In this document: positions 1,112-64,000 of the stretch, one piece after another
Numbering within the stretch: the stretch's first letter is position 1
How the letters are laid out: every line of letters begins with the position of its first letter
The notes under the pieces: model-generated
Seen by the model: the letters and a program-made list of their open reading frames with translations, nothing else
Databases searched by the model: none
Told to the model about the DNA's origin: nothing
DNA from: a virus
Length of the DNA: 64,000 nucleotides
Virus record (IMG/VR): IMGVR_UViG_3300045993_000425
Location: 64,001-128,000 of that record
Direction: 5' to 3' (one strand)
Translations under genes and position numbers: made by a program

Positions 1112-1122
1112 TGGCGTGCTTC

Positions 1123-44586: not shown

Positions 44587-47500
44587 CTAGCAGCCAGACC
44601 ACAGTTTGTTCATGCCCTCTGACAGGTTGCCGTGGATGTCTCGCAGCTGCCGCAGCCTAGTCATAGGGCATTCAGTACCAACCCCATAAAGTCTAAGCGT
44701 TTTCTCGATGACATTCTCATTCAGGTCGAGTAGCCACTCCCTGAGGTCGATATCGTCCTGACCAGCCAGCTTAGGCATGTAGACAAGCCGGTCCTCTGGG
44801 GCCATCTTCATGAAGTCTAGAGGAGCCCATGCTCGCAGGATGTAAGGCACGAAGCTGCTAGGGTCAGTTCCAGGCGAGTAGTCCGTACCGGCGAAAGCTG
44901 ACCCATGATCGATGAGGGCGATAGCACCGGCTGGCTCGACCAGAATGTTCTGGCCATGAGCATCAGTCTCCCCAATGACCCAGAGGTAGCAGGCTAGCCG
45001 GTGTAGGAGGCCTGACTTCAGGTAGGGGATGAGCACCTCAGAGGCTAGCTGCTCTGCCTGCCTGTTCTGCTCGTCCAAGGGCTTGAATTGCGCCCCTAGC
45101 AGCCTCATGGCGGCGGTTTCGCGCCCATTGATGAGGAGCAGGTCGCAGTGGGGGATCGACTGCCCTAGCCCCATCTCCTTCGCAATATGGTAGGCTGCCG
45201 CTTCCCTGGCCGACTGGCTGGCGGTTTCCTGCCTGACTCCAGCAGCCGGTGAAAGTTTCCCACTGCCTGGCTTGAGGAGCCAGATGCCACCAGACTTAGG
45301 GTCACGAGCAGCTAGAGCCCCCTTGGAGTGCTTGCCGTTGAGGTTGAGAGGCCAGACGAGGCCTTCCTTCGCCGCTCTCCCTACCTCGAGTGCTGTGTCA
45401 CGCGCCTCGAGGACAGCCGGTGTGACAGTCTTGACCCAGTGCTTCTCCTCTTCAGCCTTCCCAAGGTCCCTTCCGCCAAGCTCTAGGACAGCCTCCAGGG
45501 CTCGGAGGTTCTGTTCGTTGTCGGCTAGCTGGACAGCGAAGAGGACAGCCTTCTTCTTGTCTCCAAGCACCCTGTAGGCAATCTGGTACTGGTCATGGTC
45601 GAACGGCCTACCGGCGGCCAGGAAGATAGCTGCACTGACCAAGCGGTCTAGGTCTGGGTCGTGCCCAAGCTGCCTGGAGGCCTGGATGATCTCCCAGGAC
45701 TCAAGCTTACCGGCTTCTGGGTCGAGCCCGAGTAGCTGCTCTGACTTCTTGGTCTTGTTGGGACTAGCAGGAGCCATCTGAAGGCTGTGACGGTCCGGCT
45801 TGCCGGGAGTGCCTTGCTGCACCTTTAGGTCTGGCTGTGTCTCTAGTGAGTCCCACAGAGCGTAAGACTCTGGTGAGTTTGTGGTGTCTGACCATACCGT
45901 CCCGAACCTAGAAGCTAGATGGCGATACAGAGCAGTAGCGACCCCTTGTCGCTGGAACTTGGGATGGACGACTGTATTGAAAATGGTCATTCCGGTTCTA
46001 TTCGAGATACCTCTTAGGGTTGCGATGGTCGGTCGCTCTTCGATGTGAGTTGGCACGTCTGTTGCCGTGACATTGAAGCGGGACCACGGGATATCTCCTT
46101 CGTCCTCTGAGTCTCGATAGTGATGTACCCACCTGCCTTCCCCCAAGGGGTGAGTGTCGATGTAGGTATCAGGGGTTCCTGGGCGAGCGTCTTCGGCCTG
46201 ATACCTAGCCTCATTGTCTGGCCATGAAGGGTACTCTAGTGGCATCTTTCTTAGCCGCTCTGACTTCCGAGTACTATCAGGTGCAGGAGGCAGCTGACCC
46301 GGCAATCTGCGGCGACGAGGGATGGCTCCAGCAGCTGCAATGCCACCAGCAATGCCCAAGCCAACAGCACCCAGACCGAATCCGACCCGGCTGCCGGTTT
46401 GGGCTCCTTCGTAGGTAGACAGGGCGGCCTCTCGCATCTCGGGATCAACCGGCATAGGAGCGTGGTCCCAAGCTCTCTTCTCTGACTCCAGAGTGGCCCC
46501 ACTCAAGGTATTCGCTATAGTCCCCGGTGCAGGAGGGTTGGGGTCTAGGATGTGACCTGCCTCATGGGAGACTGCACTCGGGTGAGCAGTGTCATTGGCA
46601 AAGATGTGCCCCTCGGATGGAATCGAGAAGGGGCTCATCTTTACGGAGGTCTTGAACTTCGCCCAGCGTGCTTCCTCCTTTGGGGTGGTGGGAGCTCGTA
46701 GGTCTGCTGGGGTAGTCAGCTTGATCCCAGGAAGCTTGGAGGCATTGCGGTCGAATATGGCTCGAGTCGGCTCTACTTCATGTGCGTGCCTGGCATTGAC
46801 CTGACTCCAGTGCTTGGCCTGAGTCAAACTGCCAACCCCACTACCCGCCTTGGCTCCCGCTAGCCCACCGGCAGTCGCCATGCCAAGAGCAAGCGCACCT
46901 ATGACTCCATTACGGATAGCTCCCTTCTCAAGAGAGTCGTCGCTCTCGGCAATGGAGTCGATCAACCCGTAAATCCAGGTCAGGTTGACCTCGTCCACCT
47001 TGGCCTTGTCGGCTGTCAGGGATGTCTCGACAGTGACCGTCAGAGGGCAGCCCAGATGCTCGAAGACCCCTTGCGTCGTATTGTCAATATCCTTGCAGAT
47101 GAGCAAGCCGTCTGGGTCTACTGTCCCTTTATTCCCCTCGACATCGTAGAGCTCGACCTTCTGCCCAGCCGCAGCCGGTAGAATCTCGGCAGCCTTCTTA
47201 GCCACCTCTCGGAGCTGGTCATCGAAGACATAGGCATAGGTAGATGGAGGTAGGTCTTTCTTGTCTAGGTCAGAGTCCTGGTGGAGGTCTACCATCGCAT
47301 CCGGCGTAGGGATGGAGATGATGTCCTCATAGAAGGCTTTAGCCTCGTCTGAGGCATCAGGAGCTACTCGGACATCGTCATACCGCCGGTCAGCTACCTC
47401 GAGCACCCATTTCCCTTTGACCCGGTACTCGATCAAGTGGTTGGAAGGCGTCCCATCCTTGATGTTTCTCTTGCCTCGCCCCCAGCCGGTAGGATTGTAG

Positions 47501-47979
47501 AGGGGGTAGATATTCAGACCCACACCCTTCTCCTTGGCGTATTTCAGGATGTCAGGAAGCCTCTCGAGGACTGTCAGGGGGCCAACTTGCTCCTCCCCAT
47601 GTACCCCAGAGATGATCGTCAAGTGCTTCTCACCCTCGGTCACCAGCTTGACGAGGGGTAGACCCTCCACCTCGCCATAGCTATCTGAGCCAGCCACCTT
47701 CTCCCACTCCTTCAGGAAGGCCTTGTAGGGAGTCTTCCAATCCTTGGATGTGAAGACGGAGGGCTCAGGCTGCTCTGCCTTGTGGACAGGCTCCTCATGG
47801 TGATGGTGCGCCTCATGCTGCAAGGTGCGCCTCAAGGCCTTGATGCAGTCAACGTCCTTGGTAGCGATGACTCTGGCGACAGCAGCATCCACCTCCCCCT
47901 TGCTCGAGGAGGGATCGAGGATGACTCTCTCGGCATCGATGAGGATATCGATAGGCTTACTTGTTGTCATGACGTTCAT
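44587..47979 (-). CDS. Polyvalent protein D: M14 carboxypeptidase + TM-flanked zincin + GNAT + HipA/PI3K-like kinase
   Basis: GVHGEE..NP.G..DLH; HEAGH..E; VHPKFQRQGVATALY; LLKP..REAAAY..D.H..N..IDHG. Confidence 0.8.
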   Translation of the reverse strand: MNVMTTSKPIDILIDAERVILDPSSSKGEVDAAVARVIATKDVDCIKALRRTLQHEAHHHHEEPVHKAEQPEPSVFTSKDWKTPYKAFLKEWEKVAGSDSYGEVEGLPLVKLVTEGEKHLTIISGVHGEEQVGPLTVLERLPDILKYAKEKGVGLNIYPLYNPTGWGRGKRNIKDGTPSNHLIEYRVKGKWVLEVADRRYDDVRVAPDASDEAKAFYEDIISIPTPDAMVDLHQDSDLDKKDLPPSTYAYVFDDQLREVAKKAAEILPAAAGQKVELYDVEGNKGTVDPDGLLICKDIDNTTQGVFEHLGCPLTVTVETSLTADKAKVDEVNLTWIYGLIDSIAESDDSLEKGAIRNGVIGALALGMATAGGLAGAKAGSGVGSLTQAKHWSQVNARHAHEVEPTRAIFDRNASKLPGIKLTTPADLRAPTTPKEEARWAKFKTSVKMSPFSIPSEGHIFANDTAHPSAVSHEAGHILDPNPPAPGTIANTLSGATLESEKRAWDHAPMPVDPEMREAALSTYEGAQTGSRVGFGLGAVGLGIAGGIAAAGAIPRRRRLPGQLPPAPDSTRKSERLRKMPLEYPSWPDNEARYQAEDARPGTPDTYIDTHPLGEGRWVHHYRDSEDEGDIPWSRFNVTATDVPTHIEERPTIATLRGISNRTGMTIFNTVVHPKFQRQGVATALYRHLASRFGTVWSDTTNSPESYALWDSLETQPDLKVQQGTPGKPDRHSLQMAPASPNKTKKSEQLLGLDPEAGKLESWEIIQASRQLGHDPDLDRLVSAAIFLAAGRPFDHDQYQIAYRVLGDKKKAVLFAVQLADNEQNLRALEAVLELGGRDLGKAEEEKHWVKTVTPAVLEARDTALEVGRAAKEGLVWPLNLNGKHSKGALAARDPKSGGIWLLKPGSGKLSPAAGVRQETASQSAREAAAYHIAKEMGLGQSIPHCDLLLINGRETAAMRLLGAQFKPLDEQNRQAEQLASEVLIPYLKSGLLHRLACYLWVIGETDAHGQNILVEPAGAIALIDHGSAFAGTDYSPGTDPSSFVPYILRAWAPLDFMKMAPEDRLVYMPKLAGQDDIDLREWLLDLNENVIEKTLRLYGVGTECPMTRLRQLRDIHGNLSEGMNKLWSGC

Positions 47980-50900: not shown

Positions 50901-51919
50901 CCCATGTGGTCATCTGGAGGCACCCGATCGGCAATCAGATTGAGGTCTTCCGATGTCAGAGTTTTTGCTCTAGCTGACTCACTATCTGTTCTGGCCAGAT
51001 CTTCCTTGAACTTATCAAAATGCCTTCGTCTTGATGCAAGGTCGCCCTTTTTCAGGCCCCTCCACCAGCTGCTGCCGTTATTCAGTATCGACCGCCTGAT
51101 GTCCTCTGCTCTCGCCTCATATCTAGTGCCTGAGTTGGACACCAGATACTCATTCTCGTGATTATCGTCACAGTACGAACGGTGGAAGTGCGGATACGCG
51201 AACCAGATGTCTTTCAAGGGCACCCAGGCATGGTGCATATTCGAGCCGAAGCCGGTATCGACTTGGTCAGCGAAGCTCGACAGAGCATGCTCTTGGGTCA
51301 TTAGGTGGGTGTCGAGCCCCCTAGTGAGGGCGACGTGAGTTTCCCCATTGATGAGCCGAGTATTCAGCCCACAGCCCCCAAGGATGTCGTTGTGAAGTTC
51401 CTGCCGGTGGTCAAGCAGGTCCTGCATGAGACGCGGGTTCTTCTGAACCCAGAGGTGAAGCTGCTTACTAGTGAGGTGCTTGGTCCTGCTGTTCGCCTCA
51501 CCTGTCTGGATCAGCTTTAGGAAGTCCCTATCGAGGGTGTGACCCGTCTCTGGGTCATCATAGGCTGCCAGATTGTTGAAGCGATGGACGAAGTACTTGG
51601 CTACGACAGCCGGTGGCTGGTGGGGGCTCGCCTTGTAGGCCCTAAATAGATGCTGGGCGGTAGACTCACCCTTGTCGAGGGCTGTGGCACGCTCCCAAGC
51701 ATCATCATCGACATCAATCGAATCCCACCCACCATTCGTCTTCCTCTTGGTGTTCGGGTCGACAGGGGTTGGGTGACCTGACTCTAGGTGCTGTTGCTTG
51801 AGGTCTGCCCTGGAGGGATGCCTTAGCCACCTCTCCTGGGCGCGATTCTGCCTGACCATCTGGTCTGCATGGTCAAGACCAACGTCTGCATTTTGGCTTG
51901 CGCCTGACTTGTCTGGCAT
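47957..51919 (-). CDS. Polyvalent protein C: R-S-E ART-like + helical repeats + GNAT + zincin metallopeptidase
   Basis: LTRG..LSSF..ENEYLV; NPNL-type helical repeats; ARGNGHA..N..S..F...GF; HEAMH..LEEATTE. Confidence 0.75.
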   Translation of the reverse strand: MPDKSGASQNADVGLDHADQMVRQNRAQERWLRHPSRADLKQQHLESGHPTPVDPNTKRKTNGGWDSIDVDDDAWERATALDKGESTAQHLFRAYKASPHQPPAVVAKYFVHRFNNLAAYDDPETGHTLDRDFLKLIQTGEANSRTKHLTSKQLHLWVQKNPRLMQDLLDHRQELHNDILGGCGLNTRLINGETHVALTRGLDTHLMTQEHALSSFADQVDTGFGSNMHHAWVPLKDIWFAYPHFHRSYCDDNHENEYLVSNSGTRYEARAEDIRRSILNNGSSWWRGLKKGDLASRRRHFDKFKEDLARTDSESARAKTLTSEDLNLIADRVPPDDHMGVTRLTMHPNATSAHMERLWRRIKPEEAPQPLVESNLVSGSLLDEMVDWATKNHSNRKPLNHIDWLAGNPNLTEQQADRLFRAQQAVTAVGMGNQMVANAPLSAAAVESLASKCRNPINHQQHVGTKNLLTEMLLHNHRLSDEAIEAALDRFGSSSVGVDDLQTNADDLSRRMVNIGISPRLQAVAYRLFNHPRNSNNIESQLRDLAQQKNLSPEIISLLANHTSPKVRKAVLSNRKVPIALLHESLPADAKSVAYRDIQKAIQFRLQYEKDRSEKHLIKPLPAGLAKGEQPNLAHLIDEASNDPELRGHVDSEDGAYRHPILDHAGKPVGFFTPRTEDGVIRAGATYITPAARGNGHAGRALKQYIGDKPARAFIATNNIGSQRAFGAAGFIRQQVEERWGGGHWWRNPAEIAAHAERNKLGKSSDDDQQAVWLSQLHGWIAERKREVPGWMTIMPIVAAAQHLADRLIPTEVTDEVVEGKAVTAWPSSIPLYQELQLALPPGSQLVFFRTDQPPRGKLPDGRAYWVEAVPCSEVNIGALEKAEPPKAKKPRKKAPKSEPKVEVVPAPAIAPLPPQPKLYWSGEPYDSKPNHEIEFPLPAWGSHAPDLKDDWKPTTHIQGKPIWDYDQEDVDGNRADDFTRNQSALIKLGGAVVAMVGARNPVGNRLGGAIDRALPLPEARAHHTWAGKIVMGRQDASDFAKVLSDADSGANLWDYDDAVTVYLHEAMHGASQYHDYDSDSAKALEEATTEILAQHYTPEFIRHILGSDRTPWKWGDGGGLLHAENSYDKDDYPGGVYPDDLPEGAKRPQLIQARRACAYVGWVQRFGALVAHIEGLDDPTYSDNKPDNTVVGLEGKRKQLNHMVVWYALQCKKLSHSERLKFLSQMFLHRRFGLLPPASTDRHRYVWAARKFSHILHPTTGSSGWFDLKTPIRGGMFDSLVREMHFHLLDAPTHILEDENPYYYQSPMGGLDYERHDNK

Positions 51920-51949
51920 CAGAGGCTAGATTGCGGCTGATCGAAGGTG

Positions 51950-52213
51950 CTAACCGTGCCTGATCCAGGGGTCTTCGGCTTGCTTGAGGTAGTCCTCTGG
52001 GATCTGGTTCGGGTCGACATTAGGCCTATAGGGCTCGACCTTGACCTCGAGGTCGCCACGCTTGTTGGCGACAGCCACAGCCTCCTCGAGGCTCCTAGCC
52101 GTTTCTGCCTCAGGCACATGGAGGTCGATCCAGTTTCGGATGGTCTGGTGGTCACCAAATACAGCCTCCTGGCGGCCTTCTGTCAGGTGTAGTACCGTCA
52201 ATTTAAGTAGCAT
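51950..52213 (-). CDS. Small hypothetical protein between the polyproteins
   Basis: Start reassigned to MLLKLT, overlapping the upstream stop. Confidence 0.55.
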   Translation of the reverse strand: MLLKLTVLHLTEGRQEAVFGDHQTIRNWIDLHVPEAETARSLEEAVAVANKRGDLEVKVEPYRPNVDPNQIPEDYLKQAEDPWIRHG

Positions 52214-55200
52214 CTTTGGCTCTAGGAGAAAGTGGAGAAACCGCTTGATTTGCTTGGTGATTCTCAATCCTATCAAAACCCATCAGCTTGATGGCAACGT
52301 CGTCCTGGTGGGCTAGGTTGCTCATGATCTCAGCCGGTACACCGCTGCTGCAATCGACCCACCGCCACTCCTCGACCTCATTGTCGGGGTCATTCGCAGA
52401 AGTGGGCTCCCCATCAGAGACGCCGAAGAAGATCGAGACAGGAACCTCTCCCTTAGGCCCACCATTCGCCTGCCCGACCTCTCTGAGGGTCTTCACCTCT
52501 AGGCCAGCCTCTTCCATCAACTCCCTCTTGGCTGCGTCCAGTGCCTGCTCTCCTGCCTCTACATGGCCACCAGGGAAGGTCCAGCCTCCAGCCTGTCGCC
52601 TTCCGAAGAGGATACGCCCATCCCAGTGCTCGATGATGCAGGTAACGGCAGAGGTCATGGAGGGAGACAACTCACCCTTGCCTAGACTAGGCTTCATTGG
52701 CATGGGCTTCATTGGCATGGGCTCCCTAGACCTGATCCCGATGTCGGAAGGTCGCAAGTCCCCAGGAACGTATCCATTGCGCTCTGGATAGGGGGTAGGG
52801 GCAGGGACAGCCGGTAGATATCTAGTGTCACCAGCTAGGTGATTGGTGGTGTTCCTCGCGACCCTGACTGGAACCTCCTTCAGTCCAGCAATTCCAGCTG
52901 CGATCAAGCGGTGATGACCCTCTCCCAAGGTCAAGGTCTTCTCTCGCTGGTGATAGGTCAGCATCAGAGGCTCCCTGATGCCGTTCGTCTTGATGTCATC
53001 AGCCAGTGCCCTGTTCTGGGCTGCATCGTTCCGGCGATCTACCTGAATGTACTTCAGAACTTCGTCAATAGGAACCAGTTCAGTATGGTCAGACCAGTTA
53101 CGTTTCATCGTGCTGTGGGCCTCCTCAGTGAACCGTCCACTCGCGTCTCGCCACTCTGGAGGCTCCTGCGAGCTCGCCTTCCTGATGTCATTGGTCATGA
53201 CAGTATCTATAACACGTTTGTCCATCTTTGGACTAGGGCCAAATGAGTCTATTTCAGAGGAGGACTTGCCGAGGCCATACTTGTACGGCTTCCCATATTC
53301 AGGGTGGTCTGGGTTGCCCTGGTCATACCCCTCCAGCTCGTGGTCCCTCGTGACAGAGACATGAGTCCTGGCAGCAGGGCCTGAGTGATAACTTCCGAGG
53401 ACAGTATGGCATCCGAAGTGGTTTCTAGCATGGGCGTTGAAAGCTTCCACCATCAGCTTCCCAAACCCCTTCTTCTTCATGTCCTCGTCCCGAATCTCCT
53501 GGTAGTCGATCCGAGCCGTCTTAGGTGCATCCCAATCAATCCGGCCATCTAGGACGCCTAGCCGGTTGCCTGAGGGGTACAGGAGAGCGACGGACTGCAT
53601 TCGTGGCTCAAGTAGAGGCTCCCCAGCAGGCCATCCATCCTGCCTCTCTCTGACCTCTCTCGTCGTGAGCTTGTCAGACCAATGTCGGACGTGCAGCTTG
53701 AAGCCCTTATCCTGGTACTCCTTCGGGAGGCGGAAGCTGTAGTCATGGCTCGTCACTACCGGCTCATCCGCTTTGGGTGCCCCAGGAGGAACCGGGATGG
53801 TAGACAAGGCCATCTTCTCGAGGTCCTCGCCCTTGCCCAGACCGTACCTGTAGGGCCCGAAGCGATTGTCGAAGCTTGACTCATTGGAATTGTGCTGGAT
53901 ACCATTCCTCTCGGGTTTCAGGTCCCTGGCCCGATAGGGTAGTTCATGCACCCTGGCCATCTTGTTGTGGACCCTGTTCGCATCAGTCGAGTGGTACTCA
54001 CCTTGGACCGTATGGCAGCCGTGGTGGTTGCGGACATGGGCGAGGAAGGTTTCGTACATCAGACTACCCAGCCCCCTCCCCTTCAGGTTGTTGTCTATTA
54101 GATCGGTATAGTCAATCTCAGCCACATTGGGAGCAGACAGATGTGCCTGCCCAGACACCTCGCCAACCTTGTTGTTGCCTTTGTCCAGCAAGTTCGCGTT
54201 GATGTGGTACACTCTAGGTCCATTCCCGATTGGTCCCTTACTGGAAGCAGGGGTGTTATTCACCACCAGCCGGTATCCAAGCCTTTGATACTCCTCAGGA
54301 AGCCTCTTGGTGTAGTCATGCTGGATAGCTCCCCTAGCCTGCTGGAATGGGGTCAGAACTGGGTTACTTACTAGTGGACCCACGGGAATGGTAGACAGGG
54401 CCATCTTGGTGAGGCTAGCTGGCAGCTCTGACTTGAGCTCCATCTCATGCGGCCCAAACATCCCATCGAATGCCGTATCGCCCTTCTTCCTTCTAGCCAT
54501 CTCAGAGGGGGTAGGGTGTGGATTCAGGACTGGCTTGTAGTCCAGCCCCTGCTGCCTGGCTACGCTTGCTCTCGCCCTCGAGGCTGCTGTGCTGTGGACA
54601 CCCGAGACATCCGTTGTGCAGCCATGGTGATTCTTGGCATGGGCCATAATAGCCGTATACATCGAACTGCCCATGCCTTGACCCTGGAAGCCGTTGTCGA
54701 GGTCCGAGAGCCCGATGTTGAGAGAGCCCTGCTGGTAATTCATAGGCTGCTTGCTATTTTGGTGCTCATGCAGGCGACCAACTACCTGCCCGAGGACGTT
54801 GTTCTCCTTGTCGTACATGGTAGCCGAGATGTCGCCAGCCTCAGGGAAACCTCTCTTGTATGTTTTGGCTGACTCGACTATTAGCTGGTGCCCTGCCTTC
54901 TGGTGCTCAGGCTTCAGAAGGTGGGAGTAGTCGAACGCTTGAGTGCCATCACTGCCAGCTGTTCCAGTAGGCTTTCCGAGGGCAATGTTGGCTAGGGCCA
55001 TCTTCTCGAGGTCTTCCGAGTCGGACTTCTTTACTGGAGGAAGAGGACGCCCATTGATTGCAGACCTCACCTGCTGGTCATGGTCGAATGGGCGGTATGT
55101 GATGTGAGTCTGAAGCTCGTCGGCACCATGGTCTTCAGGGTCTGCCAAGTGATCGTATTCTCTACTCAAAGCTTGGATCTCGCCTGGATCTTTCCCGAGT

Positions 55201-56039
55201 AGGTTTGGAGCAGCCTCGGTCACACCCTGGAAGATGTCTCTGTGGATAATACCATCATAGCCAAGTCGCTTGCCTACAACTGGCGTCCTGGGGGCATCCA
55301 CGAAGGCGAAGGTGTCAGCCCTGATGTTGTCAGCATGCTTGAAAGCTGACTTCGTATCTGTCTCCATGTCCTTGAAGTCATCCCTTGCCTGCATGAGAGG
55401 GGTGGACATGTGCATGAAACCAGACTGATCTTCGTAGGGAACCTTGTTCCAGGGGTCCATCCCTGCATTGACCTTGAAGCTAGACTCTCCATCCATATTC
55501 ATATCTTTGACATGACGTTTGGATAGGTAATTCAATACCTTGACCGCTTCTTCGTGTGTCATCCCATTCGGCTTACCATATTTCATCGCTCTCAGGTAGT
55601 GACCAAATGACATTTGAGGACCATGCTTAGTCAGGTCTAGTGGGTTCTTGAGCACCATATGGACAGGGAACACATTGGCTCCCTCTCCAAACTTGCTGCC
55701 GCCCTTGTAGGAAGGTCCTGGGGTTCCCGAGTAGATGCTGCCGATGTCGGACGAGTCTGTGTATGAACGAGTCGAAAGAGCACCATGCGGGTTGCCAGCT
55801 CGCCTAGTGCCCCGATACAGGACGATAGGCTTACCTTTACTGTCAACCAGCCTGGAGCCAGCGAACCAAGAAGGGTCGGGTTCGACAGCCTTCATAAGCT
55901 CACCCGCACTTACAACATACTCAGACCTCTTATGCAGCCGGAAACGCCCATTGGCGCTCTTTTCGGGAGAAGCCGGTACATCGGGCTCATCCGACCCCTT
56001 CGTCGCTTGGTGAGCCGCCTTCCTCGCTTTAATCTTCAT
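52203..56039 (-). CDS. Polyvalent protein B: ART + 3x GNAT + ParB/Srx + Nudix
   Basis: Start reassigned to MKIKARK; GKP.VLYRGT..V.PV....KNP..GYDGII; three G.G.G..MY/V modules; GIREP..EGHHR; GGHVEAGE...AKRELMEEAGL. Confidence 0.82.
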   Translation of the reverse strand: MKIKARKAAHQATKGSDEPDVPASPEKSANGRFRLHKRSEYVVSAGELMKAVEPDPSWFAGSRLVDSKGKPIVLYRGTRRAGNPHGALSTRSYTDSSDIGSIYSGTPGPSYKGGSKFGEGANVFPVHMVLKNPLDLTKHGPQMSFGHYLRAMKYGKPNGMTHEEAVKVLNYLSKRHVKDMNMDGESSFKVNAGMDPWNKVPYEDQSGFMHMSTPLMQARDDFKDMETDTKSAFKHADNIRADTFAFVDAPRTPVVGKRLGYDGIIHRDIFQGVTEAAPNLLGKDPGEIQALSREYDHLADPEDHGADELQTHITYRPFDHDQQVRSAINGRPLPPVKKSDSEDLEKMALANIALGKPTGTAGSDGTQAFDYSHLLKPEHQKAGHQLIVESAKTYKRGFPEAGDISATMYDKENNVLGQVVGRLHEHQNSKQPMNYQQGSLNIGLSDLDNGFQGQGMGSSMYTAIMAHAKNHHGCTTDVSGVHSTAASRARASVARQQGLDYKPVLNPHPTPSEMARRKKGDTAFDGMFGPHEMELKSELPASLTKMALSTIPVGPLVSNPVLTPFQQARGAIQHDYTKRLPEEYQRLGYRLVVNNTPASSKGPIGNGPRVYHINANLLDKGNNKVGEVSGQAHLSAPNVAEIDYTDLIDNNLKGRGLGSLMYETFLAHVRNHHGCHTVQGEYHSTDANRVHNKMARVHELPYRARDLKPERNGIQHNSNESSFDNRFGPYRYGLGKGEDLEKMALSTIPVPPGAPKADEPVVTSHDYSFRLPKEYQDKGFKLHVRHWSDKLTTREVRERQDGWPAGEPLLEPRMQSVALLYPSGNRLGVLDGRIDWDAPKTARIDYQEIRDEDMKKKGFGKLMVEAFNAHARNHFGCHTVLGSYHSGPAARTHVSVTRDHELEGYDQGNPDHPEYGKPYKYGLGKSSSEIDSFGPSPKMDKRVIDTVMTNDIRKASSQEPPEWRDASGRFTEEAHSTMKRNWSDHTELVPIDEVLKYIQVDRRNDAAQNRALADDIKTNGIREPLMLTYHQREKTLTLGEGHHRLIAAGIAGLKEVPVRVARNTTNHLAGDTRYLPAVPAPTPYPERNGYVPGDLRPSDIGIRSREPMPMKPMPMKPSLGKGELSPSMTSAVTCIIEHWDGRILFGRRQAGGWTFPGGHVEAGEQALDAAKRELMEEAGLEVKTLREVGQANGGPKGEVPVSIFFGVSDGEPTSANDPDNEVEEWRWVDCSSGVPAEIMSNLAHQDDVAIKLMGFDRIENHQANQAVSPLSPRAKDAT

Positions 56040-59000
56040 TGGCTTTCCTGACCTTGCCTCGCCACATCTTCCTGCCCTTCCAGGGACCGTCCTGGGTAGG
56101 GAACTCCCCGTACTTGGCCTCCTTGAAGCCCCAGAGGCGTCGAGGAAGCTCATCATAGGAGAAGCGGAAGTGAACCGGCAGTGGGTCCTTTGGGTCTAGA
56201 CCAGAGATTGGAACTTTGAACTCAGGATGCGGCCAGTGGATGTCCCCATAAAACTCTCGGTTGCGGAGGTGCTGTAGGAAAGCCTCAGAGATGAGCTCAT
56301 TAGGGTGCGTGCCACCGTAAAGAATCTCCTGGATACGCTTGAGCTGTTCTGGAGGGTATTGATTGTTGTAGTCATTCCTGAGGGCCTTTTCATGCTGCTC
56401 CCTATCTCGCTCCACGTTCTCTCGAGGTTGCCTCTCTTCGTACTCCCTCTCGCGATTGATGAGACTCTCCCTTACATTCGCAATATCTTCCTCTGTCCAG
56501 GGGTGATGGGTGTGCTCATTGGCTACATCGTACTTGTTGCCCTTCTCGTCAACGTAAACAACGTATCCCTCACGGTCATTGTACTCATGCACTCCCTCAA
56601 GCATCTTGGGGCTAAACCTCCTCCCATTCGAGATGACGGGCTGGCAGTTACCCACCTTCAAGCCTGACTCCATCAGATGGGCCATCCTCAAATCTGCCTT
56701 CTTGGCGTAGTCAGCTTCTGGGTCGTCTGGGAGGATGGTATCATCAGGGAACATATTCAATGCCCTCTGCTTGGCCTTTGACTCCATCCTCTTCGTCCAT
56801 TCATGCCCGAGGTCGCTCTGCACCTCGTCTACATGGATGGGCTTGTGCTCCTGCTTGTCCTCATCCCACTCGCCACCCGTAAACCTGACCCAGCCTGCCG
56901 TCTTCGGAGAGCCCACAGGGTTGACAGGGTGCCCGCTATTGTACCGGGAGTTGAATAACCCCTGGAATAGCTCCATGAGCCCTTCCTTCTTCAGTTGGAC
57001 CATCCGCTCCATAGGGAAGTCCAGCCGGAAGACGTTGCTCTCCTGGGCTGAGTGCTGCTGGGTAGGGAGGAGGTCATCAGGCAATACCTCACCCTTGACC
57101 TTCCTCATACCATTGCAGCTAGGACAGGTAACCGATGTCTCCTCCTCGAACTCACCCTTTCCATCGCAGATGTGACAAGGTCCCTTGAGTCCAGCAGGTA
57201 GGGCTACACCGGTCTGAGCACACATCAGGCAACGATTGACCCTTGGCTCCTCATTGAAGCAGCGTCGACATACCTTCGCCTCCGAGCTGCCGGTTCCTAC
57301 GCAGGCGTGGCAGTCAGCTTCCCCAGCACTCCCGGTCCCATGACAGGTTTCACAGTCTTTAGGCAGAGTACTGACGTGCTCTAGGGCTGAATCGAGGTCT
57401 GGCCTGTTTCCACGCTTTGTACCATTGCACTCACTGCAAGGGACCATCACCGTGGTAGGAACGTGACCCTTCCCGTGGCAATGCTGGCACCACTTCATGT
57501 AGTCAGACTCACCCTTGCCCCAGTGCCCCTTCGAGAACCGCCAGGTTTCCTCTGGCTGCTTGTCGATCTCGGCTTGGATGGACTCTACCGACACATGGCC
57601 TGGATTCCTGCTGTCTCTAGGCCAGTTCCCTGGAGGCATCTCCTTGTGATGGACCGATGTCTTCCCCTGCTCGAGGATGTGGTCCCTAGCTGCCCTGAGC
57701 TTGTTGGTACGCAGTCTGAAGGTGATGTTCTCGTCCTCTTCCTCACCGAAAGGCTGGGTCCAGCTCTCGTCCTTCTCTGTCTTCCTCACCTGCCCTGCCC
57801 ACATCTTCACCCTGCCCCAAGGCCCATCCTGAGTCGGTAGATCACCGTAATGCGCCTCCTTGAAGCCCCAGAGCCGCTTAGGGAGCTCGTCGTAGGAGAA
57901 GCGGAAATGTACCGGCGGCTCATCCTCTGGACGCCCCAGAGAGATGGGTGCCTTGAACTCTGGGTGCGGCCAGTGGATATCCCCTGTATAGCCCTGGTTC
58001 CTGAAATGCTGTAGGAATGCCTCGGCAATAAGCTCGTTAGGGTGGGTTTGACCAAACAGAATCTGGTTGACTCTCTCCAGCTTCTCGGGTGGGAACTCCT
58101 TGTCGAACTGAGCCTGTAGACCAGCAGCGTGCTTGGCTCGCATCTCCTCGATGACAGCCTTGGGCTTCCTCTTGTCATTGATCATCATGCTGGTGACGAC
58201 CTGAGACTCGAGGCTGGCGATGTCCTCCTTGGTCCAGGGATGGTGGGTGGTTGCATCTGGAACTGAAGTTACCGTGCCATCAGGATGACTAAAGCGAGTG
58301 TCTCCATAGAAGGCCTTGATCGTTTCGATCCCATCCTTCATTTTAGGATAGAATGCCATCGAACCACCGACCCTACCTCCGTCCACATACAGTGGCTTGA
58401 ACGTGCCTTCTAGCGACTGTTGGGTCCGCATAAGAGCATCCCTGACTGCCTCCTCTGCGAACTTGGCATACTCAGCCTTGACATCATCAGGCAAGATCAT
58501 CTCGTTTGGGTATTCCTCGATGGCCTTAGCTCTAGCCTCTGAGCCTGCCTTCTTCGTCCAGCTCTGACCATAGTCGGACTGCACCTCGTCTACATGGATA
58601 GGCTGTCTCTCACCATTCGCACTCACCTTATTGCCACCCGTGAAGCGAACCCACCCAAGCGTAGGCGCAGCACTATTCTCGCTTACAGGATGCCCTGCAC
58701 CCAGAGAGGCCTTGTACATATTGCCGAAGAACTCCTCCAGCCCCTCGTCTCGCAGCTGCTGGAGGTGCCTGTCATGCAGGTCGAGCCGGAAAACGTTGCT
58801 CTCCTGGGCTGAGTGCTGCTGGGTAGGGAGGAGGTCGTCCTTGTTTGGGGTTCCTCCTGTGATCATCCCGCTGCCCTCGCAGTCAACGCAGGTTTCGTTG
58901 ATAGGCTCTAGCGTGCCATCACCGTGGCAATGATGACAGTAGTTTATATAGTTGCCAGGGATGTTGACACCGGTTCCCGCACATGCTTCGCAGTCGTCGA

Positions 59001-62000
59001 CCCTGTCTGCTGCATTGCGGCACTCTCTGCACCTGTCCAGGCCACTAAAGCACTGCCCCATGCAATAATCGCAGTCGTCACCGCTGACCTTGACTACACC
59101 CTTTTCTTTGCACTCACCACAACCCTCTCCCCCTCCCTCACAGTCAGGGCACTCCTTGTGCTCATTGCCATCGCCACCACAGAACTCACAGTCCCCACAC
59201 TTCTGGCCGATATCGGTGATGTACTCGCGAGCCAGTGCTAGTGTTAGGCCTGTCCTACCAGTCCCATCACATTTCTTGCACTTAGGCACGATTCTGTCGG
59301 TGATCCCATCACCACCACAAGTGTCACAGACTTGATGACCGAGGCCATCTTCCGCCTCCCCATAGTACCCCTTGGAGAAGTTCCAGACATGCGAGGGCTG
59401 CTTGTCGATTTCAGCCTGAAGGTGCTCTGCCGAACAGTGTGAGGGATTCTTGGGGTCCCGTGGCCAGTTCCCAGGAGGCATCTGCTTGTAGTGGATCGAG
59501 GGCTTACCCGTAGCCAAGATTTGGTCCCGGCCGAGGCGCAGCTTGTTGGTCCTGAGCTTGAAGCTGATCTCGCCCTCATTCGGGTTTGAAGGGTCACTGC
59601 CTTCAGTCCAGCTCGCATCCGTCTCTGTCTTCTCGAGGTTCTTGTGCAATTGGTTATCCAGCTGCTGGCTCCCATAGCGGAATAGCTGGTCGCTGAAGTC
59701 TCTATGCACCTGAGGGTCCACCATCCAGCTCTTGATTGCCTGGTTCTCGTCCCTGTCAGCGTCAGTCTTGGCTTCCAGGTTCCGACCCAGCTCAGAGTCC
59801 TGGTAGAGGGCGAGGTTGTAGGCATTGACGTGACTGATGATGTCCTTGTGCCGGTCTAGCCAGTTGAGGGTCCTACCATATGTCTCTTGGTTCTCCCCAG
59901 GTAGCCCCACCATGATGTTCGGGATGAGGCTGACACCAGCCTGCCTGAGCTTCCCTGCCGCCTCCTCGAGTAGCTTCTCTGAGGCTGGCTTCTTGTGAGC
60001 CCTCAGGATTGGGTCATTGAAGGTTTCTACCCCTAGCTCGACGTGCCTGATGCCAGCAGCCTTCAGGAAGTCAGGAGTCATGTTCTTCATGGCAGCTGCT
60101 GTCGTCTGGATTACGAACCCCTTGAAGTTAGGGTTCTTCTCCTTGATCTTCTGGTAGATCTGAGGGAGCAGCTTATGGTTGTCAGCTTGGCCGAACGTCT
60201 TGTCATTGAGGTAAATCAGCTTTGTTGGCAGGTGCTTAGAGATGGACTCCACCTGCTGCATGACCTCATCGGTGCTCTTCTCCTCTACCTTCTTGGGGAC
60301 GCAGCAGAATGTGCATTGGTGCCTGCATCCATCCGATAGGGTCAGCCTGGGGATAGTCGGAGTCCCTTGGAAGTGTCTGTAGTCATGGCCAGGATTGTAG
60401 GGAAGTCCGAACTCCTCTACGAAGCTCCGCATGTCAGGATGCACCTTGACATTGTTGAGCCCAGCGAAGTGGCTCATGTCGGTGTAGCCCCCTACCGCGA
60501 TCTTCTGGGTAGGGACAGCCTGGGCTAGCTGCTTGATGAAATCCTTGTTGACATCCAACGCACTGAAGGCGACATGAGAATACCCAGCGTCCTTGATCAT
60601 CCTGGCTGCTTCCTCTGGGTTTCGGACTGTCAGATGGTCTGCATTCGGGACACTATGGGCCAGATGCGCTTGCCATTGGGGGATTTCCCAGAAATCCTGA
60701 GGTCTATCATAGCCTTCCCTGTTTGCGTACAGCTTGTCATAGTAGGCATCTGAGTCATCCCTCTGACGGTTCCCTTGTAGGAGGTCAGATGAGAACTGCA
60801 CCATCAGGACTCGATTGGAGTTGCTACCAGATGGATGCTGCCGTACCCACAGGTTCTGGTCTTGGGTAGGTGATTTGAAGCCCTGCGGCGGCTTTGGCTT
60901 CGCTTGGCTTGCCTGCTGGTATGTCTGGTGGGGACTCGTGTGCTTCGAGCCAGGGACCTCTCCTCCTGCCTCCTGGTGGGCTTCCTTGGGCTGTACCCTT
61001 CCAGTAGGTGTACCTAGCGTGACGAGCCCCTTGCTGAGACGCTCAGGCTCAGGTTCTGCCCATCCGTCCCTATGAGGGCTCTGGTTCAGGTGGCTAGAGA
61101 GGACAGCCTTGACTGCCTCCTCGAGCCCTTCCCTTGTGTCCTGTAGGTTTACCTTGAAGCCTCCACCGCTACCTTCGACACTACCTACCAGCCGTCCACC
61201 CTTGCTGACACTAGCGATGTGGTTGGAGTTGATAGCGAGCTTGTACCCTTCAGCCTCAAGCTGGTGAGGAAGCTGGTGGATGTGCGAAGTGACTACACCC
61301 TCGTTCTTCGCTAGCCTTACCCGATATGGACCATACCTGCCATCGTAGTCGCTGATAGCTCTCGGATTGATCCACTCTGAGAAGTCATTGTAGGAGCCAT
61401 CTACTGAGTTGCTCCCATAGTTAGGCTTGGCGGTGTAGACGAGGTTGTGCTTGTCTGCTAGACGCTCCCTGGTTCTGTGGGCAGAGGTCGAATGCACATC
61501 TCCTACCTCCTCCTTGACCCCGAGGTGCCTGACAGCATGCGTCATTGCAGCCTCGTATAGAGCCGTTCCTAGCCTATTCTCTTTGCTCCTGTGGTTCGCC
61601 TTGACGCAGACATCAATCGTCTTGAGGACCGGCTTGCCATTCTCCATCTTGATTTCGCCATCCCACATACCTACAGGGACAGAATGGTCCAATGGCTTGA
61701 CATGAGCTACCAGGCTCTTCAGTTGGGGCTTGTACCTAATGAGTAGCTGGTACTTGGATCTGGCAGGAATGGGTAGGTGCTCGGAGTAGTCATAGACATG
61801 CTCTCCGGTAGGATACTGCCTGACCAGCTTACCCTCTGGTAGTTCCTCAATTGCCTTCTGTAGCCTTGGTGAGACTGCTTCTCCGTCCTTCTCTCCCTCC
61901 TCGGCGGCTTCCTCGTTGCTCCTTACGTTGTCAATGATAGATTTTGCGTACTTCGATGGTCTATCCCAGCCAGTTAGTGGACCCTCTGCGACACCCTTGC

Positions 62001-64000
62001 TGTAGTCAGGAGGAGTCTCAAACTGGTCCCAGGTCGGGTCTAGGACAGTCTTCGTCTTGGTGTGGAATAGGAAGTGGTGGGTGTCGCCCTCGTGATGGAC
62101 CCACCTCATCTGCCAGCCTGTCCTGGGAGCCCCGATGAGATGAGCCAGAGCCTCGGCACCTACATAGCAATAGCCTTTCGTCGGATGCTTGTCGCCACGG
62201 TATCTTGGCTTCCGCATCTCGTCTTTGAAGCTATCCCTGACCCCATGCATCGCTGCCAGGATGTGGTCAGGTAGGTCGATGTGGCTTGCAGGCTCTGGGT
62301 AGGGAGCCTCTGCCTTCCTGATTTTGCCACGCCACATCTTTAGGCCCCTCCAAGGTCCATCCTCGGTAGGGAAGTCATCATCCCCATACAGGCTTTCCTT
62401 GAATCCCCAGAGGCGGCTTGGTAGTTCGTCATAGCCGAAACGGAAATGGACCGGCAGCGGCTTGTCGGGACTCAGTCCAGAAATTGGGGCCTTGAACTCA
62501 GGATGGGGCCAGTGAATGTCTCCTGTGTACCCCTTATCGCGGAAGTGCTGGAGGAAGGCCTCTGAGATCATCTCGTTCGGGTGTACTCCACCAAACAAGA
62601 TCTCCATGATCCGAGCCCTCTTTTCAGGTGGCAAGTCTCTGTTTTCACGGTCCTTGTACCTTTGTGCTATCTCAGCACGCAAGATACGCATCCTTTCCAG
62701 GGTTGGGCGCTCGTCCTGGCTTCTCAGATGCTCAATCATCTCAGCCCTTACCCGAGCCAGAGACTGCTCAGTCCAAGGCTGGTGAGTCTTTTCACTTGGA
62801 TAGTAGTGAGGATTGCCATCAGCATCGATCCAATCGATACCGGGCTTATTTACGCCAGGATTCAGATCTGGAAAGAACTGCGTACTACCAAACGAACCGT
62901 GACTAGAGGAACCCTCCAAGCTCGGAAATGAAACAGTACCTACTGGATGATACACCAACAACTCATCAGCTTTTTTCGCATACTCCTCTTCTGCGTTAGC
63001 TGGCCGAGCCTTGGAGTCGGGGTAATTATCTTCTGCCACCTTATCCCAGTGCTTGCTCCTGTCCTTTGCCCACTTCTGCCCGAAGTCCGATTGCACCTCA
63101 TCGACGTGGATCGGGTTTCTGCGGTGGTTCTCATGATCCCAATCGCCACCAGTGAATCTAACCCACCCTAGATGGTCATCTCCACCAGGGTGTGACTCAT
63201 AGTGGCTCAGGTCATGCATATTGCGAAATACATCCAGAAGCCCCTCACTCTCGAGTTGCTTCAAATGTTCCGCTGTCAGGCCAAGCAGGAATGCGTTCGA
63301 CTCCTGATTTGAGTGCTGCTGCGTGCTTTTCAGGCTCTCTCGAGTGGGCTCGTACTGAACGTTACCTTTTCCCTCACAGGTAGGGCACTTGCTTCTGACA
63401 ATGTCGCTGCCGGTTCCACCGCAATGATCGCAATTTCCTCTATGACCGATAGGTACATGAACACCTGTCGATCCACAGGTCTCGCAGTCTTCCTTCAGCT
63501 CATCTTTATTGTGGCAAGACCGGCATACCTCTAGAGGTCCGAGCCCAAGCCCTTCACAGCTAAAGCACTGGTTGCCATCGATGTCCTTGCCTACTCCTTC
63601 ACAAATGGCGCACTCACTTCCATTCAGATTCATGTACCGTTTTGCATCAACGTAATGACAGTACGATTCATCTTTGCTTGTGCCCGACCCATCGCAGGCA
63701 GAGCAAGTATGGTTAACACTGAGCGTTCCAAAATTACAATTGTCCTCCGGGCAAGGCTTAATCCAATCGCTAGGCCCCTTGCCATAGTAACCAGTCGTTA
63801 CCATGTAGCGATGCACAGGCCTCTTGTCGATTTCGGCCTGGATGGCTTCTACGGATACATGACCTGGGTTGTTAGGGTCGCGTGGCCAATTGCCTGGGGG
63901 CATCTGCTTGTGGTGCAAGCTCGTCTTCCCCTGCTCGAGGATGTGGTCCCTAGCCATCCTGAGCTTGTTGGTTCGGGTCTTGACGTTGACAAGTACATCG
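56029..64000 (-). CDS. Polyvalent protein A (5'-truncated): 3x Zn-finger/EVQSD module + Cys-His-Asp domain + GNAT + radical SAM
   Basis: Frame is open to the window edge (DVLVNVKTRTNKLRMARD matches the internal repeat starts); CxxCxGxG repeats; CRHQCTFC. Confidence 0.82.
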   Translation of the reverse strand, partial: DVLVNVKTRTNKLRMARDHILEQGKTSLHHKQMPPGNWPRDPNNPGHVSVEAIQAEIDKRPVHRYMVTTGYYGKGPSDWIKPCPEDNCNFGTLSVNHTCSACDGSGTSKDESYCHYVDAKRYMNLNGSECAICEGVGKDIDGNQCFSCEGLGLGPLEVCRSCHNKDELKEDCETCGSTGVHVPIGHRGNCDHCGGTGSDIVRSKCPTCEGKGNVQYEPTRESLKSTQQHSNQESNAFLLGLTAEHLKQLESEGLLDVFRNMHDLSHYESHPGGDDHLGWVRFTGGDWDHENHRRNPIHVDEVQSDFGQKWAKDRSKHWDKVAEDNYPDSKARPANAEEEYAKKADELLVYHPVGTVSFPSLEGSSSHGSFGSTQFFPDLNPGVNKPGIDWIDADGNPHYYPSEKTHQPWTEQSLARVRAEMIEHLRSQDERPTLERMRILRAEIAQRYKDRENRDLPPEKRARIMEILFGGVHPNEMISEAFLQHFRDKGYTGDIHWPHPEFKAPISGLSPDKPLPVHFRFGYDELPSRLWGFKESLYGDDDFPTEDGPWRGLKMWRGKIRKAEAPYPEPASHIDLPDHILAAMHGVRDSFKDEMRKPRYRGDKHPTKGYCYVGAEALAHLIGAPRTGWQMRWVHHEGDTHHFLFHTKTKTVLDPTWDQFETPPDYSKGVAEGPLTGWDRPSKYAKSIIDNVRSNEEAAEEGEKDGEAVSPRLQKAIEELPEGKLVRQYPTGEHVYDYSEHLPIPARSKYQLLIRYKPQLKSLVAHVKPLDHSVPVGMWDGEIKMENGKPVLKTIDVCVKANHRSKENRLGTALYEAAMTHAVRHLGVKEEVGDVHSTSAHRTRERLADKHNLVYTAKPNYGSNSVDGSYNDFSEWINPRAISDYDGRYGPYRVRLAKNEGVVTSHIHQLPHQLEAEGYKLAINSNHIASVSKGGRLVGSVEGSGGGFKVNLQDTREGLEEAVKAVLSSHLNQSPHRDGWAEPEPERLSKGLVTLGTPTGRVQPKEAHQEAGGEVPGSKHTSPHQTYQQASQAKPKPPQGFKSPTQDQNLWVRQHPSGSNSNRVLMVQFSSDLLQGNRQRDDSDAYYDKLYANREGYDRPQDFWEIPQWQAHLAHSVPNADHLTVRNPEEAARMIKDAGYSHVAFSALDVNKDFIKQLAQAVPTQKIAVGGYTDMSHFAGLNNVKVHPDMRSFVEEFGLPYNPGHDYRHFQGTPTIPRLTLSDGCRHQCTFCCVPKKVEEKSTDEVMQQVESISKHLPTKLIYLNDKTFGQADNHKLLPQIYQKIKEKNPNFKGFVIQTTAAAMKNMTPDFLKAAGIRHVELGVETFNDPILRAHKKPASEKLLEEAAGKLRQAGVSLIPNIMVGLPGENQETYGRTLNWLDRHKDIISHVNAYNLALYQDSELGRNLEAKTDADRDENQAIKSWMVDPQVHRDFSDQLFRYGSQQLDNQLHKNLEKTETDASWTEGSDPSNPNEGEISFKLRTNKLRLGRDQILATGKPSIHYKQMPPGNWPRDPKNPSHCSAEHLQAEIDKQPSHVWNFSKGYYGEAEDGLGHQVCDTCGGDGITDRIVPKCKKCDGTGRTGLTLALAREYITDIGQKCGDCEFCGGDGNEHKECPDCEGGGEGCGECKEKGVVKVSGDDCDYCMGQCFSGLDRCRECRNAADRVDDCEACAGTGVNIPGNYINYCHHCHGDGTLEPINETCVDCEGSGMITGGTPNKDDLLPTQQHSAQESNVFRLDLHDRHLQQLRDEGLEEFFGNMYKASLGAGHPVSENSAAPTLGWVRFTGGNKVSANGERQPIHVDEVQSDYGQSWTKKAGSEARAKAIEEYPNEMILPDDVKAEYAKFAEEAVRDALMRTQQSLEGTFKPLYVDGGRVGGSMAFYPKMKDGIETIKAFYGDTRFSHPDGTVTSVPDATTHHPWTKEDIASLESQVVTSMMINDKRKPKAVIEEMRAKHAAGLQAQFDKEFPPEKLERVNQILFGQTHPNELIAEAFLQHFRNQGYTGDIHWPHPEFKAPISLGRPEDEPPVHFRFSYDELPKRLWGFKEAHYGDLPTQDGPWGRVKMWAGQVRKTEKDESWTQPFGEEEDENITFRLRTNKLRAARDHILEQGKTSVHHKEMPPGNWPRDSRNPGHVSVESIQAEIDKQPEETWRFSKGHWGKGESDYMKWCQHCHGKGHVPTTVMVPCSECNGTKRGNRPDLDSALEHVSTLPKDCETCHGTGSAGEADCHACVGTGSSEAKVCRRCFNEEPRVNRCLMCAQTGVALPAGLKGPCHICDGKGEFEEETSVTCPSCNGMRKVKGEVLPDDLLPTQQHSAQESNVFRLDFPMERMVQLKKEGLMELFQGLFNSRYNSGHPVNPVGSPKTAGWVRFTGGEWDEDKQEHKPIHVDEVQSDLGHEWTKRMESKAKQRALNMFPDDTILPDDPEADYAKKADLRMAHLMESGLKVGNCQPVISNGRRFSPKMLEGVHEYNDREGYVVYVDEKGNKYDVANEHTHHPWTEEDIANVRESLINREREYEERQPRENVERDREQHEKALRNDYNNQYPPEQLKRIQEILYGGTHPNELISEAFLQHLRNREFYGDIHWPHPEFKVPISGLDPKDPLPVHFRFSYDELPRRLWGFKEAKYGEFPTQDGPWKGRKMWRGKVRKANED

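Follow-up and report, generated by a model that had tools for sequence, protein, structure and literature searches.

Do the four giant multidomain proteins encoded in a Myxococcus phage Mx1-like genome, here called A, B, C and D, act as intact chains, or are they polyproteins that the prohead protease of the phage would cut into separate enzymes? The stretch of DNA that raises this question, hereafter the window, comprises 64,000 nucleotides, i.e., bases 64001-128000 of the 166,843-bp IMG/VR virus record IMGVR_UViG_3300045993_000425. The source genome is an Mx1-like myovirus of ~167 kb, and its nearest described phage is Myxococcus phage Mx1, with 51% identity between the major capsid proteins (MCPs). 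A sequence-only reading of the window had described A-D as strings of unrelated enzyme domains that carry a lysine motif at almost every boundary (a bar marks the presumed cut, as in LEK|AE), and had proposed a candidate new system of capsid-loaded, protease-segmented effectors. We have found that one short motif is present in the capsid site, in the scaffold and in these cargo proteins. Since the motif is common to the predicted capsid maturation site and to the junctions of A-D, the latter are probably cut by the head protease.

The four long open reading frames (ORFs) are co-oriented on the minus strand and extend from window position 44587 to the window end. Their presence agrees with the sequence-only reading, which required two corrections, because A runs past the window and the start of B is internal to its ORF:

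56029..64000, minus strand, polyprotein A (in-window ORF 56029-63957 and onward), continuing to genome position 128422; the full ORF has 2797 aa and its in-window start lies inside module R1
52203-56156, minus strand, ORF of polyprotein B, likely start at the Met of MKIKARK
52203..56042, minus strand, polyprotein B from the Met of MKIKARK, 1279 aa
47957..51919, minus strand, polyprotein C, 1320 aa
44587..47979, minus strand, polyprotein D, 1130 aa

Translation of B most likely begins with the Met of MKIKARK at window 56042, which lies slightly within the end of A. According to Pfam and PHROG matches, A-D combine radical SAM, DnaJ-type zinc fingers, three GNAT domains, ParB-like and NUDIX domains, together with an M14-like peptidase and a kinase-like domain homologous to the "kinase" of Mx1. 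They qualify as polyvalent proteins as described by Iyer et al. (2017): each chain holds several unrelated effector or enzyme domains, and the genes are located among virion and late genes, downstream of those for the terminase, portal, protease, scaffold and MCP. Among the signature domains, PF18760 (ART-PolyVal) matches B 52-339 with an E-value of 0.0028 and 18.9 bits, under the 31.2-bit cut-off; the ParB-like matches come from PHROGs only, the HExxH motifs were spotted by eye only, and the MuF-like protein is here a separate gene of the head module.

The 23 pentapeptides listed in that reading are all present, with the Lys codon at the coordinate given below for each (offset 0 for 23/23):

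A, minus strand: IRK|AE 62315, LQK|AI 61856, LAK|NE 61307, LSK|GL 61031, LEK|TE 59630, VRK|TE 57782, VRK|AN 56045
B, minus strand: LMK|AV 55891, LEK|MA 55003, LTK|MA 54406, LGK|GE 53833, LEK|MA 53815, LGK|SS 53266, IRK|AS 53179, LGK|GE 52678
C, minus strand: LDK|GE 51672 (codon 51671-3), LAK|GE 50040 (50039-41), LGK|SS 49632 (49631-3), LEK|AE 49275 (49274-6)
D, minus strand: VHK|AE 47780 (codon 47779-81), LEK|GA 46925 (46924-6), LRK|MP 46247 (46246-8), LGK|AE 45458 (45457-9)

By the loose definition, [LIV]xK[AGSTNM], the motif exceeds chance only modestly in A-D, with 35 matches against 22.4 +/- 4.8 in shuffled sequences, a modest 1.6-fold excess; the strict form and the relatives exceed it strongly. 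Around the sites, Glu is 4-fold enriched at P2' (P1 being the residue before the bar) and P4 and P5 show an excess of acidic residues, and the refined motif [LIVM]-x-K|[SAGTM]-[E/D] is ~8-fold enriched in A-D. When Glu is required at P2', 11 matches are found against 1.4 +/- 1.2 expected (0/500 shuffles reach 11), at a density 9x that of the other 166 ORFs of the genome, and an Arg-for-Lys control shows no enrichment. Since the strict motif had been refined post hoc on A-D, we have tested it in 28 polyproteins from relatives and Mx1, where it was found 58 times against 13.7 +/- 3.5 (z 12.8), with the Arg version and the reversed motif at or below expectation. An exhaustive HMMER search of a 1.84-billion-protein library yielded 108 large homologues, in which the strict motif occurs 247 times against 82.7 +/- 8.9. 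The proposal that sites are often doubled was supported weakly, by 24 pairs lying 4-14 aa apart against 13.3 +/- 3.4 expected.

The prohead protease and a matching capsid site, which the sequence-only reading had placed outside the window, were indeed found upstream of A, with the two genes 3.6-12.7 kb past the window end and on the strand of A-D:

genome 131613-133070, same strand as A-D, major capsid protein of the upstream head module, with the site LVK|ALE
genome 135946-140718, minus strand, protease-bearing protein of 1590 aa, its gene ~8 kb past the window end

The N-terminus of the MCP consists of a leader of ~8-20 aa, variable in length and sequence, after which 119 of 120 homologues have a near-invariant L-x-K|A-[LM]-E-A-G; the last one is a truncated entry whose sequence starts immediately behind the site. 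LVK|ALE is the predicted maturation site of the capsid protein, and a cut there would take off a 13-aa leader in this phage. The scaffold homologues are very rich in the motif, with ~7 sites each (loose motif 187 against 48.9 +/- 6.9, z 20; strict motif, z 31). The protease protein itself contains the site LRK|MQGG, followed by a stretch that mimics the capsid N-terminus, as well as a doubled site before its C-terminal kinase-like domain, and both features are kept in Mx1.

The first ~190 aa of the 1590-aa protein are modelled as a confident fold (AF2; predicted local distance difference test, pLDDT, 85.6) whose best structural match is T4 gp21 (5jbl_A; Z 9.9, root-mean-square deviation 2.9 over 124 aa), followed by herpesvirus assemblins (Z 9.2 for the VZV protease, 7.1 and 5.9). 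The top Foldseek matches are all herpesvirus proteases, at a weak E-value of 0.016. Among the candidate catalytic residues, His48 and Ser128 are invariant and His103 is nearly invariant in 35 sequences. The protein has no protease match in Pfam or PHROGs, and it is the modelled fold and the synteny, not the sequence family, that suggest its assignment to the prohead proteases. We infer that this enzyme has P1-Lys specificity and cuts the sites described above. Beyond this domain, the protein comprises the capsid-N-terminus mimic, an intein containing a LAGLIDADG-like segment and, at its C-terminus, a PI3/4-kinase-like domain that resembles the terminal one of D. The protease protein holds several unrelated parts, and thus the protease gene itself encodes a polyvalent protein.

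The position of the sites relative to the modules can be followed best in B, for which the predicted pieces are (all on the minus strand):

55890..56042, minus strand, N-terminal leader of 51 aa, ends LMK|AV
55026..55889, minus strand, ART-PolyVal-like module (B 52-339), weak, sub-cut-off PF18760 match
54405..55001, minus strand, GNAT module 1 (B 348-546), flanked by LEK|MA and LTK|MA
53832..54404, minus strand, GNAT module 2 (B 547-737), ends LGK|GE, then a 6-aa linker to LEK|MA
53265..53813, minus strand, GNAT module 3 (B 744-926), ends LGK|SS
53178..53264, minus strand, 29-aa spacer between LGK|SS and IRK|AS
52677..53177, minus strand, ParB-like module (B 956-1122), PHROG ParB-like families, high-scoring segment pairs (HSPs) 972-1115, ends LGK|GE
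52206..52676, minus strand, NUDIX module (B 1123-1279), PF00293 with E 2e-19

As to the claim that the motif marks almost every boundary, the sites are concentrated at junctions and linkers, and ~12 of the 35 loose matches lie off boundaries. The comparison of domain boundaries with domain interiors came out in favour of the motif in homology breakpoints, HSP ends, alignments and AlphaFold linkers alike. Where BLAST homology between polyproteins with reshuffled modules breaks off, a site is found <=10 aa away for 28% of the breakpoints, compared with 13% for random positions (z 8.5). The starts and ends of ~400 HSPs of B cluster at 50-58, 320-347, 530-547, 730-745, 900-930 and 1100-1122, coinciding with the sites at 51, 339/347, 546, 737/743, 926 and 1122. 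Folding was limited to a two-module segment of B, because MAFFT domain-fragment alignments on long B stretched across unrelated domains and were discarded. In the AlphaFold model of B 320-760 (pLDDT 80.8), the sites 339, 347, 546, 737 and 743 fall in or at the edge of low-confidence linkers, and an unlisted loose match at B 621 falls in an ordered beta-hairpin (pLDDT ~95).

Alignments with relatives point in the same direction. Two-module GNAT segments from 24 proteins, at ~30% identity, share the ending Y-x-Y-x-L-K|S-E and the beginning phi-x-K|M-A, both of them conserved, with a linker of 0 to ~40 residues in between. The position of D site 841 is kept in 8/9 relatives although its flanks diverge, and the site at C 83 recurs in a relative that carries the module inside a protein of 1620 aa, behind an unrelated upstream partner. 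Stand-alone homologues of the ART-like module, of 250-300 aa, span the predicted B fragment end to end. Proteins of Mx1-like phages have a phi-x-K|A/S/T site 8-15 residues upstream of where the ART domain starts, and a second one after its end; no such sites were found around the ART modules in giant proteins of another phage type or in stand-alone ARTs. By these sequence comparisons, the motif at the ART-like module is a property of the phage lineage and not of the module. In addition, a site is located 3-83 residues from the N-terminus in B, C, D and many relatives.

A search for another enriched P1 residue in ART-containing giant proteins of other lineages gave no clear motif. A radical-SAM-rich phage of that other type (ENA contig L053:10001-22242) encodes ART-PolyVal proteins of 3198 aa and 882 aa without the lysine junction motif, and may offer a natural contrast group for the question of whether other lineages have a junction code of their own.

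The modules of A, whose ParB-like N-terminal domain is located beyond the window, are the following:

62314..64000, minus strand, module R1 (residues 131-703), Cys-rich zinc-ribbon, ends IRK|AE
61855..62313, minus strand, module 704-856, phrog_12251-like, ends LQK|AI
61306..61854, minus strand, module 857-1039, homologous to the GNAT modules of B, ends LAK|NE
61030..61305, minus strand, small module 1040-1131, ends LSK|GL
59629..61029, minus strand, radical SAM module 1132-1598 (PF04055, E 1e-19), ends LEK|TE
57781..59628, minus strand, module R2, second copy of the R repeat, ends VRK|TE
56044..57780, minus strand, module R3, third copy of the R repeat, ends VRK|AN, four residues before the stop codon

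The R repeat is present in three tandem copies of ~580 aa, with several CxxCxGxG-type zinc ribbons, and its C-terminal subdomain is conserved. Pfam, PHROGs, the ESM Atlas and a homologue search gave no family for it, and it occurs solely inside giant proteins of related phages (L011, L019, L038, L051). A Pro/Gln/Lys-rich low-complexity stretch of ~100 aa precedes the radical SAM module, and a radical SAM Fe-S enzyme would be unusual as presumed capsid cargo. As had been claimed, duplicated modules are bounded by sites, as is the case in A for its three R repeats and in B for its three GNAT repeats; these sites are interdependent and do not count as independent, because they bound duplicated modules.

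For C and D the predicted pieces are given as residues of each protein, encoded on the minus strand:

C 1-83, minus strand, leader
C 84-627, minus strand
C 628-763, minus strand, weak GNAT match
C 764-882, minus strand
C 883-1320, minus strand, HExxH zincin-like
D 1-67, minus strand, leader
D 68-352, minus strand, M14/AstE-like peptidase
D 353-578, minus strand, Gly-rich segment and HExxH
D 579-841, minus strand, GNAT-like and helical
D 842-1130, minus strand, PI3/4-kinase-like

Apart from the weak GNAT match and the HExxH motif, C has no family match. ESM Atlas and homologue searches with C gave no usable relatives, and there is a single partial match to it among five complete related genomes, in which the N-terminal 760 aa of D have no match.

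Taken together, we consider it rather probable, judging from the sequences, that the prohead protease would cut A-D in trans into ~20-25 fragments. In this scheme, A-D, which close the head-morphogenesis operon, would enter the prohead, possibly by means of the short leaders with which B, C and D begin. The 1590-aa protein's N-terminal domain would cut them after Lys in [LIVM]-x-K|[S/A/G/T/M]-(E/D), and the same protease would remove the 13-aa capsid leader, break down the scaffold and detach itself from the long extension at its C-terminus. The cuts would yield ~20-25 separate domains, by the fuller count ~22-25 pieces for A-D, and the linkers between paired sites would be excised. The freed domains would then be carried inside the capsid and probably reach the host cell together with the DNA; packaging and injection of the products are suggested by the gene position and by analogy with the T4 Alt and internal proteins, the phiKZ/SPN3US ejection proteins and the P1 Dar proteins.

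Several observations weigh against this scheme. The strict form of the motif was defined after the data had been inspected, and the shared ancestry of the modules inflates the z-scores, so that the independent events are fewer than the counts, the negative controls being equally inflated. Kyte-Doolittle and TOP-IDP windows show no difference around the sites, a crude test that speaks neither for nor against their location in linkers. Three of the four C sites and three D sites have no independent boundary support, no homologues having been found. The Pfam prohead-protease model, PF04586, has no match in the whole genome. The structural relatives of the protease cut after Glu (T4 gp21) or Ala (assemblins). 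The literature searched contained no virion proteomics of Mx1-like phages. The HExxH and M14-like peptidase modules in C and D are alternative protease candidates. Finally, the GNAT start site K|MA is kept even in large homologues without the strict motif elsewhere, and in one homologue the residues that follow it are the natural N-terminus; the GNAT-module sites could be intrinsic to the module or scars of gene fusion.

This last point leads to an explanation for the locus as a whole that we regard as unlikely, namely that the motif is an uncleaved module cap or linker, or a fusion scar, left where an ancestral protein's C-terminal tail was joined to the Met/Ala/Ser-Glu N-terminus of another, carried along with shuffled modules, and that the chains act intact. 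The GNAT start K-M-A-[IL]-x-D-I-P is indeed kept in 24/24 aligned homologues, the NUDIX module forms the protein N-terminus in many relatives, beginning at residue 1-4, exactly at the position of the B site, and the P1' residues A, S, G, T and M are typical N-terminal residues of proteins. Intact packaging of large polyvalent proteins is also documented, for P1 DarB (PMC9024508) and N4 vRNAP (PMC5512222). However, junctions that are never cut leave unexplained why Lys is required at P1 together with a hydrophobic residue at P3, without enrichment of Arg, and why the same motif follows the variable capsid leader and is so dense in the scaffold. Sites behind short leaders at true N-termini, and the absence of the motif from ART homologues of other lineages, are not explained either.

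Cutting by another protease, either the HExxH zincin-like modules of C and D, the M14-like module of D or a host protease, seems improbable to us. C and D do carry HExxH motifs, and D 68-352 resembles M14-type metallopeptidases, but M14 enzymes are, as generally known, carboxypeptidases and not endopeptidases. Autoproteolysis by embedded peptidases such as MPTase domains has been proposed for polyvalent proteins (Iyer et al., 2017; PMC5512222). Against this, the capsid, scaffold and protease proteins, which are the canonical substrates of a prohead protease, carry the same motif here, and it is kept in relatives whose sampled polyproteins show no detected homologue of the C or D modules.

Internal translation starts at the Met of the K|MA and K|MP sites are very improbable. 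An ATG is found at P1' in 4/23 sites, and the same residues are a true N-terminus in one homologue; nevertheless, no Shine-Dalgarno-like sequence precedes the four internal ATGs, 19/23 sites have no Met, and the requirement for Lys and a hydrophobic residue would be left unexplained. We have rejected this candidate for the lack of a ribosome-binding-like sequence upstream. Chance, i.e., a degenerate tripeptide chosen by eye in long Lys-rich proteins, is hardly credible in spite of the 1.6-fold excess of the loose motif and its off-boundary matches, given the strong enrichment in independent relatives with negative controls and the co-location with boundaries.

Cleavage by the prohead protease also agrees with the setting of the locus. 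In the genome ORF map and the PHROG and Pfam scans, the head module is found on the strand of A and directly upstream of it, in the order terminase, intein-bearing portal, MuF-like protein, 1590-aa protein, GGDEF protein, 162-aa protein, Ala/Pro-rich scaffold-like protein, MCP, several small proteins, 288-aa protein, and A, B, C, D. The order protease, GGDEF, scaffold, MCP, ~285-aa protein and polyprotein(s) is also found in Mx1, in 45 IMG/VR loci and in an unrelated Logan contig. In Mx1, the genes past the MCP encode a "NUDIX hydrolase" of 1479 aa and a "kinase" of 619 aa. The relatives' loci were retrieved with an MCP alignment, after a scan of viral contigs with the single kinase domain of D had retrieved nothing; a megablast of the region against 50,697 phage records gave no match. 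The lineage comprises >1,400 capsid homologues and is mostly uncultured, with Mx1 as a culturable member. Across the five complete related genomes the cargo is hypervariable, and the head genes there are 50-60% identical.

Other genes of the head module and of the window deserve mention on their own:

genome region 149197-153984, portal protein with an intein carrying a LAGLIDADG endonuclease (Pfam matches)
genome region 146926-149195, MuF-like head gene apparently split over two ORFs, with intein-splicing and DUF559/Vsr-like matches
genome 134843-135631, minus strand, GGDEF diguanylate-cyclase-like protein, between protease and scaffold
window 22478-24049, plus strand, thymidylate synthase ORF split by an HNH endonuclease-like segment (PHROG matches for both halves)
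window 25112-26392, plus strand, tyrosine-integrase-like gene near the thymidylate synthase, in a phage architecture that is otherwise lytic-looking

The GGDEF protein is kept in Mx1 under the name "nucleotide cyclase", and one relative (L055) has it as a fusion with the protease protein; its C-terminal end is the motif site VKK|SE.

Multi-site processing of head cargo by prohead proteases is already established for T4 and phiKZ/SPN3US. T4 gp21 trims short N-terminal capsid-targeting leaders, at L/I-x-E| sites, from proteins that are packaged and injected, including an ADP-ribosyltransferase, and has the capsid and scaffold core proteins as further substrates, all at one common short motif. 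The protease of our phage has the same fold, gp21 being its best structural match, and the short N-terminal leaders of B, C and D resemble the cleavable capsid-targeting leaders of the T4 internal proteins. However, in T4 the cut follows Glu and takes a single leader off each single-domain cargo protein, whereas here P1 would be Lys and 4-8 internal junctions per chain are predicted. In phiKZ, 201phi2-1 and SPN3US, the protease (gp175, gp245; A/S/G-x-E|) cuts many head and ejection proteins, some of them more than once, as well as itself, and in SPN3US 14 sites in 9 proteins were found and the motif recognised by mass spectrometry (PMC10052503). That cleavage, unlike the one proposed here, mostly removes or fragments N-terminal propeptides, and the mature products are single proteins and not strings of enzymes. 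The Dar antirestriction proteins of P1 (DarB, DdrB and DarA) are large multi-domain proteins that counter host defences and are loaded into the capsid, as the head is being assembled, through an N-terminal localisation signal, DarB being reported as a virion protein of 250 kDa (PMC9024508). No junction motif has been described there, in contrast to A-D; the P1 capsid site is E120|S121.

The closest likeness in the use of Lys comes from the Herelleviridae, whose MCP is distantly homologous (23% identity, E 2e-8). Bacillus phage YungSlug, a member of this family, has DLNK|ALSAGY at the N-terminus of its MCP, 13 phi-x-K|S/G sites in its scaffold and, as in the Mx1-like phage, an MCP mimic after the protease domain. 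The YungSlug "PARP polymerase" (869 aa, L057:5345-7954), the one polyvalent-like protein beside its portal gene and encoded directly upstream of it, shows no enrichment, with 4 motifs against 7.3 expected. The capsid protein of A511 reportedly also matures by cleavage at a Lys|Ser site. From their sequences, the features of YungSlug suggest an old Lys-specific branch of the assemblin/gp21 fold.

The label of a new system was too strong, as polyvalent proteins had already been likened to the polyproteins of RNA viruses and the release of their domains by peptidases, including assemblin-like ones, had been proposed (Iyer et al., 2017; PMC5512222). The proteins of that proposal are, like A-D, giant chains of unrelated effector domains, with 2-15 per chain and with ART-PolyVal, ParB-like, NUDIX, GNAT and peptidase domains among them; their genes lie beside virion genes, and packaging and co-delivery with the DNA are predicted (PMC5512222). 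The proposal invoked embedded peptidases acting in cis and named no motif, whereas the defined junction motif found here points to a prohead protease acting in trans and the paired sites point to excised linkers. We have found no earlier description of a junction motif defined for polyvalent proteins, of such a motif being identical to the site of capsid maturation, of a protease acting in trans at nearly every junction, or of the consistency of such a motif over a phage group that is very large and mostly uncultured but has a culturable member.

Polyvalent proteins occur widely in phages and plasmids, and the question of whether they function as one chain or as polyproteins dates from 2017. 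We give an even chance to the wider proposition that, in this lineage, one Lys-specific prohead protease and a universal junction code, phi-x-K|small-acidic and often paired so that the linker is cut out, convert hypervariable polyvalent proteins, inside the capsid, into ~20 free enzymes. If true, polyvalent proteins would have their first defined processing code, and a Lys-specific branch would be delimited within the assemblin/gp21 protease fold. Any module with the code on both sides could be exchanged into the injectable cargo, and a leader followed by cleavable junctions would be a natural design rule for loading several enzymes into a capsid. The junction code would make the question of processing directly testable in Mx1 on Myxococcus xanthus, and the cargo products of hundreds of metagenomic phages would become predictable from their sequence.

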